From: a virus
Lineage: Duplodnaviria; Heunggongvirae; Uroviricota; Caudoviricetes
IMG/VR virus record: IMGVR_UViG_2565956708_000012
Reading direction: 5' to 3' (one strand)
Length of the DNA stretch: 4,475 nt
This document shows positions 187-4,475 of the stretch, one piece after another. The translations under genes were made by a program, and so were the position numbers. Every line of letters starts with the position of its first letter. Position 1 is the stretch's first letter. The notes under the pieces are model-generated. The model saw only the letters and a list, made by a program, of their open reading frames with translations. It did not search any database and had not been told where the DNA came from.

Positions 187-228
187 GTTCACAGATAAAA
201 CACTCTCCAGGAAACCCGGGGCGGTTCA
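1..228 (+). mobile_element. IS3-family insertion sequence (IS629/IS1203-like), right end, 5'-truncated by window edge
   Basis: Frame-1 translation of 1..186 gives an IS3-family OrfB C-terminus, and the element ends at ...CCCGGGGCGGTTCA (228). The last 25 bp (204..228) are the inverted complement of 4382..4406, matching 23/25. The IS629 name is from memory, not a search. Confidence 0.85.
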
Positions 229-462
229 GAGTAGCTTACGAAGCTTACCATCAGCGGCAACCATGTTCATATGAACACAGTTGAATTTGCTAATCTGCTT
301 CATGAGTTTTGTTTGCTGCGTTGACCAGCTCATTCCGAGGTTTTCAACGATTGGCTTCATCGCAACATATGCAACTCCGGCAGCCATGGCGGTGATAATT
401 TGCTGACCGTTGAATGGCACGTAAGAGGTGTTCACTGCTTCTAAAATTGCTATACTATTCAT
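226..462 (-). pseudogene. ant: Antirepressor (Ant/AntA-like) N-terminal fragment, 3'-truncated by the IS insertion
   Basis: ATG at 462..460 sits 9 nt after a GGAG (complement of 473..476). The 78 native codons ([44 protein letters not shown]...) resemble an AntA-type antirepressor N-terminus. The frame ends in a TGA formed by the IS terminus (complement of 226..228), and Ant proteins are normally several-fold longer. The 528 GTG start in the ORF track is an unsupported upstream extension. Confidence 0.55.
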
Positions 463-545
463 GTTGGTTTTTCTCCACGGATTTACCGACAACCGAAGCC
501 CTGACTGTTCCAGCAGTTGGGGCTTCACTGTTTTGATTTCTTTGC
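463..545 (+). ncRNA. Putative sar-like antisense RNA covering the ant ribosome-binding site
   Basis: Extended -10 TGcTATACT at 448..456 on the + strand predicts a start near 463. The transcript would be complementary to the ant SD and start region and end at the 495..526 hairpin plus T-rich tract. This is inferred from sequence and the P22 sar paradigm only. Confidence 0.25.
495..545 (+). terminator. Hairpin with downstream T-rich tract (intrinsic terminator candidate, + strand)
   Basis: A 13-bp stem (495..507 pairing with 514..526, two G-U wobbles, loop ttccag) is followed by actgTTTTgaTTTcTTT at 527..545. The T tract exists only in the + orientation. Confidence 0.35.
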
Positions 546-694
546 CGCATCAAGCATCACTTCTGAAAACGTGCGCTTGCCACTGAATACTCTTTCTCTT
601 CTCAATTTTTCGTTCGTGCCAAATGATTCGCCATGAACAAAATTTGGTCTTAAAATGGTAATCGCAATCTCTTTGACTACTGCATCCAAGCGAA

Positions 695-847
695 TCACAC
701 CGTTACCCCCTCTCTCTTCAGGCTGTCTATCAGGCGCTTGATAACCTCTGAGTTAAACGACCTGCACTCTTCCTTTGCCCTGCTACCGATAGCATCCTTT
801 AACGACTGCGGCATCCTTACCAAAATCTTACTTATTTCTTTCTCCAT
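695..847 (-). CDS. arc: Arc-like ribbon-helix-helix transcriptional repressor (50 aa)
   Basis: ATG at 847..845 follows GGAGGG with a 5-nt spacer. The product MEKEISKILVRMPQSLKDAIGSRAKEECRSFNSEVIKRLIDSLKREGVTV fits the Arc/MetJ RHH pattern (basic beta-strand xVRMPxxL, then RSxNSE helix) and P22 Arc length. It lies upstream of and co-oriented with the ant fragment. The 883 start in the ORF track is an unsupported extension. Confidence 0.7.
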   Translation of the reverse strand: MEKEISKILVRMPQSLKDAIGSRAKEECRSFNSEVIKRLIDSLKREGVTV

Positions 848-961
848 GTTACCCTCCACGCAAACAACTCTTTTCGAATACAAAAGATAGCAAAGTGAGT
901 ATATCTAGTCAAAATTTTTTTGCATACACTTTGCTATCAAATTGAATACCAAAGGTGTTAT
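848..961. promoter_or_regulatory. Divergent promoter/operator region between the arc-like and mnt-like genes
   Basis: 114-bp intergenic region. On the minus strand, a candidate -35 TTGACT (912..907) and -10 TATCTT (889..884) with a 17-bp spacer face the arc-like gene. On the plus strand, TTGCAT (920..925) is a possible -35, but the matching -10 is unclear. The region contains the inverted repeat listed next. Confidence 0.45.
886..938. promoter_or_regulatory. Perfect 12-bp inverted repeat GATAGCAAAGTG ... CACTTTGCTATC (candidate RHH operator half-sites)
   Basis: 886..897 and 927..938 are exact reverse complements, with centres about 41 bp apart. The left copy overlaps the predicted -10 of the minus-strand promoter. 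Confidence 0.5.
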
Positions 962-1210
962 ATGGCAAAGGGTGTGTCAATTTCTCCAACTACGGTAAGA
1001 ATCCCTGAATCTTTACGCGAGGCTCTTGCTGTCAGAGCATCAAAAAATGGTCGCTCTGTTAACTCCGAGATCGTCATGATTTTGCAAGCCGCGATTGATG
1101 AAGATAGGTCGCCAAAGTCAGTTGAGTCATTTGCTCAGCAAGAAGCTGATAAATTCAAAGAGGCGCTACTTGAGACGCTAAAGACCATGTATGCTAAGGA
1201 TGAAAAATAA
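962..1210 (+). CDS. mnt: Mnt-like ribbon-helix-helix repressor (82 aa)
   Basis: ATG at 962 is preceded by AAAGG. The product MAKGVSISPTTVRIPESLREALAVRASKNGRSVNSEIVMILQAAID... has an N-terminal RHH (GRSVNSE motif) and a C-terminal helical tail ending ...LETLKTMYAKDEK, the same size and architecture as P22 Mnt as I recall it. It is divergent from arc. The 920 TTG start in the ORF track is an unsupported extension. Confidence 0.6.
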   Translation: MAKGVSISPTTVRIPESLREALAVRASKNGRSVNSEIVMILQAAIDEDRSPKSVESFAQQEADKFKEALLETLKTMYAKDEK

Positions 1211-1746
1211 TGCTGCACACAATTCATTTCTTATGCCCTGTTAACACTGCCACTGTTGGGCAACTTCAGAACCACTGTCTCACCGCATTATCTCAAGGCG
1301 CAACTGAATTAAATATCCATATATCAAGTCAGGGAGGGGAAACTGCTGCTGGCTTTACTGCGTATAACTTTCTTAAGTCACTCCCTGTTACCGTTAGAAC
1401 TCACAACATAAGCAATGTTGAATCCATAGCTAATATCGTTTTCCTGGCTGGCTCAGAACGTTTCGCAAACCCATTATCAAGATTCCTGTTACATCCTCTA
1501 TTATGGTGCTTTGCCTCCCCAGCCGCCGACCATGCCAGATTGAGAGAGTACGGGAAATGCCTCGATAACGATCTTGATCGCTTCGTTGAGACGTTCAATA
1601 TCGACATCGGAACCCATATTAGGTGGGCATCCCTGATAGCAGACTCGACCATTTTGGATGCTAACAAGGCTCTTGAGCATGGCATAATTAATTCCATAAA
1701 AACTGCAAGGCTGGCATCCAATCAGGCAAACTGGTGGGTTGTTTGA
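1210..1746 (+). CDS. ClpP-fold (peptidase S14-like) serine protease homologue, 178 aa
   Basis: The start overlaps the upstream stop (TAATG at 1208..1212). By eye the translation aligns with E. coli ClpP: NIHISSQGGETAAGFTAY vs YINSPGGVITAGMSIYD, SNVESIANIVFLAG vs GQAASMGAFLLTAG, LLHPL vs MIHQP, and LEHGIINSI vs VEYGLVDSIL. Candidate Ser/His/Asp triad positions are occupied. It lacks the ClpP N-terminal segment. Confidence 0.6.
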   Translation: MLHTIHFLCPVNTATVGQLQNHCLTALSQGATELNIHISSQGGETAAGFTAYNFLKSLPVTVRTHNISNVESIANIVFLAGSERFANPLSRFLLHPLLWCFASPAADHARLREYGKCLDNDLDRFVETFNIDIGTHIRWASLIADSTILDANKALEHGIINSIKTARLASNQANWWVV

Positions 1747-1777
1747 TGGGTAAATCATGATTACTCCTTATAAAAAA

Positions 1778-1796
1778 CCCACCTGACGGTGGGTTT
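1778..1796. terminator. Bidirectional intrinsic terminator between convergent genes
   Basis: aaaaaaCCCACCtgacGGTGGGttt: a 6-bp GC-rich stem (1778..1783 with 1788..1793) and 4-nt loop, flanked by an A tract upstream and a T tract downstream. It sits between the ClpP-like stop (1746) and the YafO-like stop (1795..1797). Confidence 0.6.
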
Positions 1797-2244
1797 AGTC
1801 AAACATAGTGTTTCTAAAGTCTCTCGCATACCCTGCTAACACTCTCATTCTATTATGATTGTTAGCAGACATGTGAGCTACAGGATGAAAAAGAGCAATC
1901 AATGAATACCTGTTCTCATCAAAAAGATTTTGTGCATAAACGAGAGCGGTATTGGATGTTTTATGCCACTGCAACTTTTGCGGTGTGCTGATATCTGTGC
2001 CATTTTTTATTGGCTCAAATTTATTTTCACCAATTGCTAAATGAAGGTGCATAAGGCCTGCATCTTCAATATCAGGAGGTCGATGATAAGAGGTGTCTCT
2101 GCCAAAATAGCTGGGCAACGTTCCCGTAGACTTGTAGATGATAAAATCATCTACAAGTGTTTGTTTTAAATCAGGAAACTCAACAAAAACCGGGGAGAAA
2201 AAATAGTCAAAACTATCCTGATTATATTCCACGGTTACTTGCAT
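1795..2244 (-). CDS. YafO-family toxin (ribosome-dependent mRNA interferase family), 149 aa
   Basis: ATG at 2244..2242 follows GAGG with a 6-nt spacer. The translation aligns with E. coli YafO as I recall it: DFIIYKSTGTLPSYFGRDTSY vs DFISYKRDGVLPDIFGRDALY, HLHLAIGEN vs HIHLANEN, ALVYAQNLFDENRYSLIALFHP vs HLVYCQGAFDEQAWLLIAILKP, and a C-terminal NNHNRMR...ARDFR vs DNNQMHK...AEAFR. Confidence 0.7.
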   Translation of the reverse strand: MQVTVEYNQDSFDYFFSPVFVEFPDLKQTLVDDFIIYKSTGTLPSYFGRDTSYHRPPDIEDAGLMHLHLAIGENKFEPIKNGTDISTPQKLQWHKTSNTALVYAQNLFDENRYSLIALFHPVAHMSANNHNRMRVLAGYARDFRNTMFD

Positions 2245-2252
2245 GTTTTACC

Positions 2253-2819
2253 TCAGTGGAAGTTACCAGAGTGAAACACACGAGTCCCGTGCTCAGCAAG
2301 CGCACGCAAACCAGCCATATCTACGGAACTATCAAAAACAACCGGAACACATGAGCGTTGTTTAATAAGACTATTCAGGTTGGTTACGGCAGATCTGGCA
2401 TCAGCAACAACGATATAGATATCTCTTGCGATCTCTTTAAAATCAGCAGAAGCTTCTTTGAATACCGATTTCATTGCCCCTTCAAGTCCTCTCAATTGAT
2501 GCTCTATCAATCGAGACTTTTCTGGTTCAATGATAGACAACACATTGTCTACATTCTCATCGGTAGCGTTTGCAAGAACACGATAAGCGTATTTCAGCAT
2601 TCGAGACAATTCTTTAATCGAAGACACCGCCTCATGAAGCTCATCATTAGCCCGTTCACTGCTGAATGAGGATTGATGGTAAGCGTGCTGAACGTTATCA
2701 GTAACAACCACCTCACAACTGAACGCAGAAGCTTGCTGTAATAGCAAACCTATTGCGACTCCAGCTTTGGCAGCGTTCAAGCTAAACATTTCATCAATCC
2801 CATTAGTCTCATTGCTCAT
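2253..2819 (-). CDS. Hypothetical protein (188 aa), upstream operon partner of the YafO-family toxin; putative non-canonical antitoxin or regulator
   Basis: ATG at 2819..2817 is preceded by AGGAGG with a 5-nt spacer. The stop at 2255..2253 lies 8 bp before the YafO-like ATG. I recognise no family. The TTG start at 2849 in the ORF track is less likely than the RBS-supported ATG. Confidence 0.55.
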   Translation of the reverse strand: MSNETNGIDEMFSLNAAKAGVAIGLLLQQASAFSCEVVVTDNVQHAYHQSSFSSERANDELHEAVSSIKELSRMLKYAYRVLANATDENVDNVLSIIEPEKSRLIEHQLRGLEGAMKSVFKEASADFKEIARDIYIVVADARSAVTNLNSLIKQRSCVPVVFDSSVDMAGLRALAEHGTRVFHSGNFH

Positions 2820-2886
2820 ACAAACCTCCTTCTTATCGGAGATTATCAATAGCTATGCATCCATTGAATACACGCTATGCGCAATA

Positions 2887-2994: not shown

Positions 2995-3345
2995 GTGAAT
3001 GCTCAGTCTGTCATCATGGTTTTCCTTGGGCTGATTGTCGCAAAACTATATCCAGACTGGTGGAAAGGGGCATTAGCTACTGTCGCCATCTATTTGCTTT
3101 TATCCATCGTTAAGCGATCACTCGCTGAGACCGTAAATCAAGCAAAACGTTTCTCATTTAAGAGTTTAATAAACTATGTTACTGGGCTTATTTTTTGCCT
3201 TTCAATTCTGATCGCTTCGGCTTTTTTGCCCGTATCAATAGCTAATTTTTTTGGCGCACCATATGAGGTAGGTTATCTATTCTCTGTTTCCTGTCTTGCC
3301 ATTGCTCTTCTTTACCTGTGGACGAGATCAAAGAATAAAAATTAG
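2995..3345 (+). CDS. Small integral membrane protein, 116 aa, about four predicted transmembrane helices
   Basis: GTG start at 2995 is preceded by a strong AAGGAGG (2983..2989) with a 5-nt spacer. The translation has four hydrophobic stretches (about residues 5-19, 25-39, 58-78, 92-109) separated by short charged loops, with a basic C-terminus. The gene is AT-rich relative to the flanks and divergent from the partner/YafO operon. Confidence 0.6.
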   Translation: MNAQSVIMVFLGLIVAKLYPDWWKGALATVAIYLLLSIVKRSLAETVNQAKRFSFKSLINYVTGLIFCLSILIASAFLPVSIANFFGAPYEVGYLFSVSCLAIALLYLWTRSKNKN

Positions 3346-3362: not shown

Positions 3363-4381
3363 TTATTGAGCTTCTTTTTGTGATGCCTGTGCGACTCTGG
3401 TGAGCGATTGTGTGACCGTACTGATCGCTCTGTCATATGCTGTGCTACCTTTTGGCGTATTTGCCAGACGTAACAAGGCATTTCGTATAACAGGGCTTTC
3501 GTATGCCTTCGCAGCTCCTCCTACGACACCAGCAGCAGGAACAACAAACGCAGCCGTTTTTAGCATCCCCGCTAATACTGCTGCGTTTATGATGCCACCA
3601 CCAACTAACAATCCATAAAGCTGCTGACCATTTAAGTTTTGAACGTTCGCTTTTGCCGCGTGTCTTGTATCGTTGAGGTATTTAATAACGCCGTCCAGTT
3701 CCTTTCCATGTACGCCTTTAAAGAAAGTTGCTGATTGCTTCCTGTTCCGGTGTAACGCATTAATAAACTTTTCAACACTAATATTTCCAGACGGATCAGT
3801 CGCCTTATCTACAGCATTCTGAACTATGGCTGCTCGTGCGTTTTGCCTACCATTGTCATCCAGAAGCCTGTAAAGCTGAGAACGTTCTGATGGGTTTTGG
3901 CTAAAAACGAGTTTTGTTACATCCTCAGGTGTAGCCTTGCCGCTGGCTATTGCCTTTTGAACGCGCGTTCTTCCCATCATGTCATTGAATCTAGCCCATG
4001 AGCGATCAACCCTAGACATATTGGCAGCTTCTTCTGAGCCTAGTTTTTGGGATACTGCTTTTTTCATATCCGCTGTATATGCCTTGTAGACAATATCGCT
4101 GGCTTTCTGGAGCGTGTCTTTATCAACAGTCTCGTTTGAATTCATGAACCGCTTTCGAAGGTCAGTTCTGTTTTCTCTCGCCAGACGCAGGTCATTGGGT
4201 CCGCTGGTGATATCGTCTTTAAATTGCTGCAAGACTTTTACCGCGGCTCTATCCTGAGATTTGCCCGGGCGGCTTAACACGGCAATCTGATTGTCGATAG
4301 CTTTTACCGTGTTTGAGAGATCGACAGGGGTATCCCCCATAGCGTCAATTATGCGGTTATATCGCTTTCCTGCTGCCTCAA
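3363..4381 (-). pseudogene. Large protein, 5'-truncated by IS insertion; possibly a phage DNA-ejection/internal protein (gp16-like by synteny)
   Basis: The minus-strand frame is open from the TAA stop (complement of 3363..3365) through the IS junction at 4381/4382 and on to a stop inside the IS. The first ATG (4340) has no SD. The product has a glycine-rich hydrophobic segment (LLVGGGIINAAVLAGMLKTAAFVVPAAGVVGGAAKA). The gp16-like call rests only on its position relative to mnt. Confidence 0.4.
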
Positions 4382-4475
4382 TGAACCGCCCCGGGAATCC
4401 TGGAGACTAAACTTCCTGAGAAAGAGGTAAACAGGATGACTAAAAATACTCGTTTTTCCCCCGAAGTCCGTCAAC
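4382..4475 (+). mobile_element. IS3-family insertion sequence (IS629/IS1203-like), left end, truncated by window edge
   Basis: Terminus TGAACCGCCCCGGGAATCCTGGAGA (4382..4406) is the inverted repeat of 204..228. It is followed by an RBS (GAGG) and the orfA start. It has the same orientation as the copy at 1..228. Confidence 0.85.
4436..4475 (+). CDS. IS3-family transposase OrfA, N-terminal fragment (MTKNTRFSPEVRQ...)
   Basis: ATG at 4436 is 7 nt after AGAGG. The N-terminus MTKNTRFSPEVRQ is the characteristic start of IS3-family OrfA (helix-turn-helix protein) of the IS629 group, from memory. Confidence 0.8.
   Translation, partial: MTKNTRFSPEVRQ

Follow-up and report, generated by a model that had tools for sequence, protein, structure and literature searches.

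Two described systems bear on the stretch of viral DNA analysed here, a 4,475-nucleotide (nt) segment from IMG/VR record IMGVR_UViG_2565956708_000012 that we refer to as the window: the secondary immunity region (immI) of phage P22, and a truncated ClpP of Pseudomonas plecoglossicida. They are the counterparts of the two genes on which we focus, an 82-amino-acid (aa) ribbon-helix-helix (RHH) gene at 962..1210 and a 178-aa ClpP-like gene at 1210..1746, both on the plus strand. The annotated P22 map runs from gene 16 through sieA (with its own promoter), orf59a and mnt, which are transcribed towards gene 16, to the overlapping promoters Pmnt and Pant with the Arc and Mnt operators, and on to arc, ant and gene 9. 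On this map the P22 mnt terminator is placed after orf59a, so the place behind mnt can take up cargo, in an operon expressed in the lysogen.

ClpP1 of P. plecoglossicida (PpClpP1) is an N-terminally truncated homotetradecamer with a 42.7 Å axial pore (PLoS Pathog 2026, PMC12900304). In its Ser73-His96-Pro151 'triad' the Ser and the His are essential and the third residue is dispensable, and its peptidase activity is about 13-fold below that of the canonical paralogue (PMC12900304). PpClpP1 binds neither ClpX nor acyldepsipeptide (ADEP), and alone it does not degrade casein or ssrA-tagged green fluorescent protein (GFP-ssrA). The stable hetero-tetradecamer that it forms with canonical ClpP shows higher activity, with ClpX driving it by way of the canonical ring, and deletion of the Pseudomonas homologue impairs growth (PMC12900304).

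The original prediction for the window had put forward its two genes as a candidate toxin/antitoxin or defence module, in which a small RHH regulator might hold an effector protease in check. Our results do not uphold that proposal. The RHH protein is Mnt, and the protease is encoded by a passenger gene, probably a moron, that many prophages carry on its own, and is not a partner of Mnt.

Mnt in a P22-type immI region

The central 4.15 kb of the window is 100% identical to a P22-like prophage located by tRNA-Arg/intS in extraintestinal and avian pathogenic Escherichia coli (ExPEC/APEC), including APEC O1 and S88. In APEC O1 the genes follow in the order tailspike, ant, a small open reading frame (ORF), arc, a divergent control region, the mnt-like RHH gene and the ClpP-like gene, then a converging YafO-like toxin gene, a gene for a 189-aa protein, one for a small membrane protein, the gp16/gp20/gp7 ejection genes and, beyond these, the head genes. 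Homologues of Mnt, Arc and Ant are thus arranged divergently between the ejection-protein and tailspike genes, and we assign the window to immI of a P22-like prophage. In the window itself both ends of this arrangement are cut short, ant and gp16 being truncated by the ends of an insertion sequence (IS) of the IS3 family at ~229 and ~4380. The ClpP-like gene lies between ant-arc-mnt and the gp16 ejection gene, outside the head module and beside the immunity region, just as had been predicted.

The boundaries of the two genes also held up. The 82-aa ORF starts with the ATG at 962 and stops at 1208-1210, and it overlaps the 178-aa ORF by one base in the sequence TAATG; RefSeq annotates both genes in the identical APEC O1 DNA. 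The 82-aa protein matches Pfam Arc at 41.8 bits (cut-off 20.4), and a FitA-like RHH family was matched as well. It shares 36% identity with P22 Mnt across residues 11-79 (an alignment of 74 aa), which includes the C-terminal tetramerisation part beyond the RHH domain, and its Pectobacterium orthologue also matches Pfam Repressor_Mnt. The gene occupies the syntenic position of P22 mnt, opposite arc-ant, and leads the rightward operon. We conclude that the product of this 82-aa gene is the Mnt repressor, whose role in the lysogen is to silence ant.

Compared to P22, the window phage has the same gene order, putative divergent overlapping promoters, Mnt and Arc homology, and cargo downstream of mnt before a probable terminator. 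The differences are that the slot filled in P22 by the 59-aa orf59a, second in the mnt operon, is occupied in the window phage by the ClpP-like gene, that an extra small ORF lies between arc and ant, and that the candidate operator sequence is not the same.

The junction between mnt and the ClpP-like gene (1196..1212, plus strand) combines an AAGGA Shine-Dalgarno sequence within the 3' end of mnt (1196-1200), 9 nt upstream of the ClpP-like ATG, with the TAATG overlap (1208-1212). The same 1-nt overlap is found in Pectobacterium and in phage PhiR12_1; in Providencia a 29-nt gap separates the two genes. For the window phage, co-transcription with the RHH gene is supported, as is the translational coupling that had been predicted. 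As the second gene of the mnt operon, coupled to mnt, the protease would be made in the lysogen.

A short ClpP of the PpClpP1 kind

The product of 1210..1746 is an N-terminally truncated ClpP-family serine peptidase with a Ser72/His95 dyad. It matches Pfam CLP_protease (PF00574) at 44.4 bits (cut-off 20.2) over residues 24-165. A single-chain AlphaFold2 (AF2) prediction with an input of 25 homologues gives a ClpP fold (mean predicted local distance difference test 88, predicted template modelling score 0.84), and more than 1500 ClpP chains of the PDB match this model at E<=0.001 with template modelling (TM) scores of 0.70-0.91. Given this fold and the Pfam matches of both proteins, the two genes are real and not chance ORFs; the RHH (Mnt-like) and ClpP fold assignments of the original prediction are borne out by the profiles, AF2 and Foldseek.

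Canonical ClpP (E. coli, MEROPS S14) and the window protein share the CLP_protease fold, the GG motif, Ser and His in register and the handle region at ~24% identity. The window protein differs from it in lacking the axial loops, helix A and Asp171, and in having polar pocket residues. Its chain begins at ClpP strand 1: 40 residues of the E. coli ClpP precursor precede the point aligned to its residue 3, and all 26 N-terminal residues of mature ClpP, which form the axial loops and helix A, are absent. The predicted loss of the N-terminal segment that docks ClpX/ClpA is therefore confirmed by the alignment. The pocket of E. coli ClpP that receives the IGF/LGF loops of ClpX/ClpA, and also ADEP, is lined by Y60, Y62, F82, I90 and L114. 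At these positions the ClpP-like family has N/Q, H, S, H and N, and the window protein itself N, H, S, H and N. Judged from the aligned residues, both the N-terminal docking segment and the hydrophobic pocket for the ATPase loops are missing from the ClpP-like protein.

A plausible Ser/His/Asp triad had been proposed, and two of its three members stand. In the alignment with E. coli ClpP, for which the numbering was verified, Ser72 and His95 correspond to Ser97 and His122 and both are invariant, as is the oxyanion-hole GG motif (G42, G43). The Asp does not stand: the position of ClpP Asp171 is taken by Ser146 in the window protein and by Ser, Ala or Thr across the family. We considered Asp107 as a substitute third residue. 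It is invariant together with His108 in the enterobacterial clade but kept in only 46 of 134 representatives of the wider family, and we make no claim for it.

These 134 representatives are the best ones of comparable length, at 50% clustering, from a profile search of 1.84 billion cluster representatives that returned 66 clusters at E<=1e-30 and a continuum beyond. The Ser is kept in 132 of them and the His likewise in 132; the third position is G, A, R, P, S or Q; and most have at most 12 residues before strand 1, vs 40 in E. coli ClpP. These residue patterns place the window protein in a large clade whose members are short, ClpP-like and equipped with a Ser-His dyad; they retain the GG motif and are without axial loops, helix A and the pocket for the ATPase loops.

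Among characterised proteins, PpClpP1 is the closest relative. The top Foldseek match of the AF2 model in the PDB is 9uxt_A, PpClpP1, with a TM score of 0.91, 38% identity and E 1.5e-21, far ahead of canonical ClpPs; the superposition has a root-mean-square deviation of 2.0 over 180 columns. A phmmer comparison of the two sequences matches over the full length (E 1.6e-35), and a Pseudomonas orthologue is 40% identical to the window protein. The statement that no system of such composition had been described is thus out of date, a homologue at 38% identity having been characterised in 2026. Both proteins are of similar length (178 vs 183 aa), share the same N-terminal truncation and a third residue other than Asp, and are annotated as generic ClpP. 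PpClpP1 has Ser73, His96 and Pro151 at the positions aligned with Ser72, His95 and Ser146 of the window protein, so that the two differ in the third residue. They differ also in setting: PpClpP1 and its Pseudomonas orthologues are chromosomal and lie beside KGG stress-protein genes, whereas the window gene is prophage cargo in an mnt operon. The window protein is a phage-borne member of the recently characterised, truncated PpClpP1 kind of ClpP; by homology it may share the oligomeric state, the activity and the hybrid formation of PpClpP1.

We also asked whether PpClpP1 is itself prophage-borne, and rejected this, as the Pseudomonas orthologues lie in conserved chromosomal neighbourhoods. In several Pseudomonas species these chromosomal orthologues adjoin genes for small KGG-repeat stress proteins and a DUF6555 protein, which may point to a neighbourhood of stress-response genes; the 2026 paper does not take this up.

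No NCBIfam model reached its cut-off for the window protein, for ten representatives of the family or for the Pseudomonas orthologue. The NCBIfam ClpP models (TIGR00493, PRK00277 and others) score 19-40 bits against the window protein at cut-offs of 228-361, and the head-maturation protease model NF045542 scores 49.3 bits at a cut-off of 120; phrog_94 gives 76 bits. A check for a prohead-protease fragment, which the original prediction had called for, therefore leaves the protein with a ClpP superfamily match above cut-off and a head-maturation score well below it. Like the head-maturation proteases (NF045542 / NF045540; phrog_94), the window protein has a ClpP fold without the ATPase-docking N-terminus, is phage-borne and shows 24-32% identity to them (tblastn). 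In contrast to them, its gene is neither fused nor adjacent to a scaffold or capsid gene and is antisense to the late operon, and P22-like phages use no prohead protease. A possible kinship with an 'SDH family Clp-fold proteinase' or with the defence system 'HP_SDH_sah' was set aside, since no model of that kind gave a match and searching the literature for SDH_sah yielded nothing. The Klebsiella homologue is annotated as 238 aa; the conserved MIHTVHF start lies at its residue 61, so the N-terminal extension is probably a mis-called start.

Distribution of the protease and competing explanations

Homologues of the protease are common in Enterobacterales, at 50-97% identity and all ~180 aa long. 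The original prediction had proposed a survey for conserved co-occurrence with the RHH gene, and the outcome goes against a dedicated pair. In the neighbourhoods that we examined, among them those of homologues at 50-80% identity, an mnt gene lies directly upstream of the protease only in immI cassettes, namely those of E. coli, Pectobacterium, Providencia and the lambdoid phage PhiR12_1, where an immI-like cassette is lodged between tail genes L and K of a lambda-like siphovirus. (The PhiR12_1 locus, 3606-5618, is a complete ant / small ORF / mnt / ClpP-like cassette with no arc annotated between the small ORF and mnt.) The protease gene stands alone, antisense to late genes, in at least 12 other prophage settings. 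One such site is the junction of lysis cassette and terminase, used in Leclercia, Klebsiella (three phage backbones), E. coli, Serratia, Citrobacter, Rahnella and Enterobacter; another lies between the tape-measure and DNA-circulation genes of a Mu-like (myovirus) tail module in Rahnella; and a third lies between lysis and tail-fibre genes in a myovirus-type prophage of Chromobacterium. None of the genes examined next to these stand-alone loci has an Arc/RHH domain. Phage E212 retains an intact protease gene, with IS remnants in place of mnt. Outside prophages, the members in Massilia (40-44% identity) and the whole Pseudomonas clade are chromosomal and have no RHH neighbour.

Where the two genes do occur together, they do not appear to have evolved as partners. 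In the PhiR12 phages the protease is 98% identical to that of the window and Mnt is 64% identical, the divergence lying in its N-terminal, DNA-reading half; this fits a shuffling of cassettes and not co-evolution of partners. A search of 5426 complete E. coli genomes found the window allele in 128, each time on the chromosome. These copies represent a single recently shared allele (at least 95% nucleotide identity, most at least 99%), so the association of mnt and protease in them does not count as independent conservation.

Phages with unrelated genomes thus carry this gene at sites that differ from one to the next, either antisense to the operons around it or apart from them, as is characteristic of a moron. 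The cargo beside it varies too, with a YafO pair in the window and a DUF4065-like pair in phage E212, as would be expected for a hotspot. Insertion sites of this sort, together with antisense orientation and changing toxin-antitoxin-like neighbours, typically mark cargo for lysogenic conversion or exclusion, which makes it plausible that the protease takes part in phage-phage competition.

Two side observations concern copy number and loss. In the complete genomes of strains E10, FY26 and NCTC11151 the region is split by an IS3-family element. In E10 the match to the protease gene starts at base 27 (window ~1210-1236), so the IS sits at its very 5' end, and the gene is therefore dispensable in the strains with a split region. 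The Rahnella contig JAEMGT010000087.1 is reported to carry two short-ClpP paralogues (57% and 51% identical to the window protein) in the same 24-kb prophage contig, one of them within the 12 kb that we examined.

The reading we favour, with moderate confidence, is that the window holds a P22-type immI region with Mnt and an accessory short ClpP moron that is expressed in the lysogen and acts by a PpClpP1-like mechanism. Divergent promoters would drive arc, the small ORF and ant leftward and mnt rightward, and Pmnt would yield, in the lysogen, Mnt and by coupled translation the short ClpP. From its 38-40% identity to PpClpP1 and a Pseudomonas orthologue, we infer that the short ClpP assembles into a ClpP-type barrel with a wide, ungated pore; a weak peptidase activity that depends on Ser72/His95 would be expected on the same grounds, and its own ring should be unable to dock the ClpX or ClpA unfoldase. 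Most likely it would stack with a ring of host ClpP to give a hybrid that is driven through the host ring, with altered ClpXP/ClpAP capacity or output. Alternatively, it may act as an ungated peptidase of low activity. The pay-off could be an altered Clp proteolysis that benefits the lysogen, either via host fitness or via interference with incoming phages.

Several points weigh against this reading. Identity of 38% is no guarantee that the protein would hybridise with E. coli ClpP, and since PpClpP1 is chromosomal and lies in a stress-gene neighbourhood, its biology may not transfer to a phage moron. A strict consensus promoter scan of the window did not detect Pmnt. Simple scans upstream of the stand-alone copies found few consensus promoters, so the independent transcription of these copies is assumed from their orientation and spacing. 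In the transcriptome of the LF82 prophage 'Gally', mnt is up 40-fold in macrophages; Gally has no ClpP-like gene downstream of mnt, and this therefore provides no evidence on expression of the protease. Prophage phiv205-1 carries the same mnt-protease pair, and the biofilm and adhesion phenotypes described for it belong to the whole prophage and are not gene-specific; a review credits them to its endosialidase gene.

Among the alternatives, the most interesting open possibility, if an unlikely one, is that the protease is by itself a superinfection-exclusion or anti-phage effector, an ungated barrel that alone or with host ClpP degrades proteins of an incoming phage, for example unfolded ejection or early proteins, and so protects the lysogen. 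Its placement would suit such a role: the gene sits in the mnt/sieA neighbourhood of P22, home of the superinfection-exclusion gene sieA, and elsewhere it occupies further moron sites such as the junction of lysis genes and terminase, in antisense to the late genes; toxin-antitoxin-like pairs adjoin it both in the window and in phage E212. The wide pore of its homologue could admit unfolded chains without an ATPase, yet PpClpP1 alone did not degrade casein or GFP-ssrA, and in Pseudomonas and Massilia the surroundings of the chromosomal orthologues are of a housekeeping or stress type. Nor do current catalogues speak for it. When all nine window proteins were scanned against PADLOC-DB v2.0, no family matched the ClpP-like protein at E<=0.1 and the RHH protein gave only a chance-level match to BrxA; literature searches for a prophage ClpP-like defence gene, moron or phage-borne form found nothing relevant. 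We hold it to be somewhat less probable again that temperate phages of Enterobacterales spread a captured, ungated ClpP as a moron, expressed in the lysogen, that excludes or cripples superinfecting phages, either through a hybrid with host ClpP or alone, acting on unfolded incoming proteins.

A lysogeny safeguard within immI seems improbable. The protease would degrade leaked Ant (or Arc) and so add a post-translational layer to repression by Mnt. The expected co-expression with Mnt from one operon next to ant, in four independent immI cassettes, fits this idea, but most members of the family are located at phage sites unrelated to immI.

The toxin-antitoxin or abortive-infection module of the original prediction, with the RHH protein as antitoxin or dedicated regulator restraining a toxic protease, is more improbable still, and the distribution largely refutes it. 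The small RHH gene that overlaps a larger downstream gene through TAATG does look like a type II toxin-antitoxin locus with an RHH antitoxin, and the pairing is kept in Pectobacterium, Providencia and the lambdoid PhiR12 phages. Unlike such an antitoxin, however, the RHH protein is a phage repressor, Mnt, whose known job has its target, arc-ant, next door, and it varies (64% identity overall, with the N-terminal part most affected), against 98% identity for the protease. The two genes are not kept together, as the at least 12 prophage contexts and all of the chromosomal contexts without an RHH neighbour attest, and in E212 the protease remains intact although mnt is gone. Finally, the downstream protein has no toxin-family match, and deletion of the Pseudomonas homologue impairs growth instead of relieving toxicity.

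Least probable of all, in our judgement, is a displaced or decaying ClpP-type prohead protease without a function of its own, which the weak profile similarity to head-maturation proteases described above and the GenBank label of the phiv205-1 copy (head maturation protease) might suggest: the score is far under the curated cut-off, P22-like phages need no such enzyme and the head genes are elsewhere, the closest relative of solved structure is not a prohead protease but a cellular ClpP paralogue, neither frequent frameshifts nor Ser/His loss were seen among homologues, and length, start and the Ser/His pair are conserved from 97% to ~33% identity, which indicates purifying selection.

Control elements, neighbouring cargo and implications

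The control region between arc and mnt contains a putative Pant-like promoter on the minus strand (884..912), TTGACT-17 nt-TATCTT with an upstream TG, which has 9/12 matches in a consensus scan and takes the position of P22 Pant relative to arc. A repeat search identified a perfect 12-bp inverted repeat (886..938, 100% complementary) with arms GATAGCAAAGTG (886-897) and CACTTTGCTATC (927-938). An extended -10 element, TGcTATC, is present in both arms and points outward on its respective strand. This repeat probably forms the centre of the region that controls the divergent Pant and Pmnt, and it is a candidate site for repressor binding, which would make it an operator. The putative Pmnt is an extended -10 element, TGcTATCAA, on the plus strand at 932..940, 22 nt before the mnt ATG, where it mirrors the -10 of Pant.

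Downstream, between the convergent ClpP-like and yafO-like genes, is a 9-bp GC-rich hairpin, AAACCCACC-TGAC-GGTGGGTTT (1775..1796). RNA folding gives -17.6 and -18.8 kcal/mol, with z of -2.5 and -2.9, and 42 bp are shared between the hairpin region and a sequence annotated as terminator in Salmonella phage Emek. The hairpin is probably a bidirectional terminator, stronger on the minus strand, where a U6 tract follows. A strict terminator scan of the window did not call it; Pmnt, which we read by eye, and this terminator are the products of manual reading and folding.

Leftward of the control region lie three genes on the minus strand. The first, arc (695..847), encodes a 50-aa RHH repressor (Pfam Arc 45.9 bits, 39% identity to P22 Arc) and leads the ant operon. 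The small ORF between arc and ant (525..698) is 57 aa long by ORF call, of which the last 56 codons were scanned; it matches phrog_17642 (E 2.5e-43) and is a hypothetical protein in RefSeq. It is conserved and overlaps the stop codon of arc. In P22 this interval holds no gene, just the sar antisense RNA. The third gene is the 5' part of ant (226..462), which encodes the N-terminal 78 aa (Pfam P22_AR_N 66.5 bits; phrog_245, anti-repressor Ant) and is cut by the IS end at ~229; the full gene in APEC O1 is 903 bp long. The IS itself brackets the 4.15-kb segment, with its 3' end at 1-229 and its 5' end at ~4380-4475 of the window in the same orientation. We take it to resemble IS629/IS1203. Since complete genomes such as SCU-116 have a single IS copy, in ant beside the region, the source of the window has two copies or a rearrangement.

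To the right of the terminator, on the minus strand of window 1795-2822, is a YafO-family toxin gene (149 aa, Pfam YafO_toxin 78.9 bits), 8 nt downstream of the gene for the 189-aa protein (phrog_8416), which is not YafN-like. This pair is a better candidate for a two-gene toxin-antitoxin or defence system than the RHH-ClpP pair. In phage E212 the same slot holds a different pair, of 149-aa and 140-aa proteins; we take the N-terminus of the 149-aa protein to be DUF4065/Panacea-like from its appearance by eye. Further on, at 2995-3345 on the plus strand, a multi-pass membrane protein of 116 aa (109 aa in RefSeq) is encoded convergently with gene 16, in the slot of P22 sieA. This position is a further likeness to P22, but the protein is not SieA-like: BLASTP detected no similarity between it and SieA (E 0.29), and it matched no family.

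What was proposed as a toxin/defence pair thus comes down to two genes that are each understood, one for the Mnt repressor and one that is cargo. Database labels for the latter can be corrected, as it is neither the usual ATP-dependent Clp protease subunit nor a head maturation protease. The truncated ClpP of a fish pathogen turns out to belong to a large clade, whose members in enterobacteria have been spread by temperate phages into classic lysogenic-conversion sites, and a short ClpP gene is present in ~2% of complete E. coli genomes, including the ExPEC/APEC strains APEC O1 and S88. Should hybrids form between the phage copy and host ClpP in the manner of PpClpP1, prophages could tune a central host protease, with effects on lysogeny control, toxin-antitoxin turnover and phage-phage competition. 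If it serves in exclusion, it would represent a protease-rewiring form of prophage immunity that is not in current defence catalogues.

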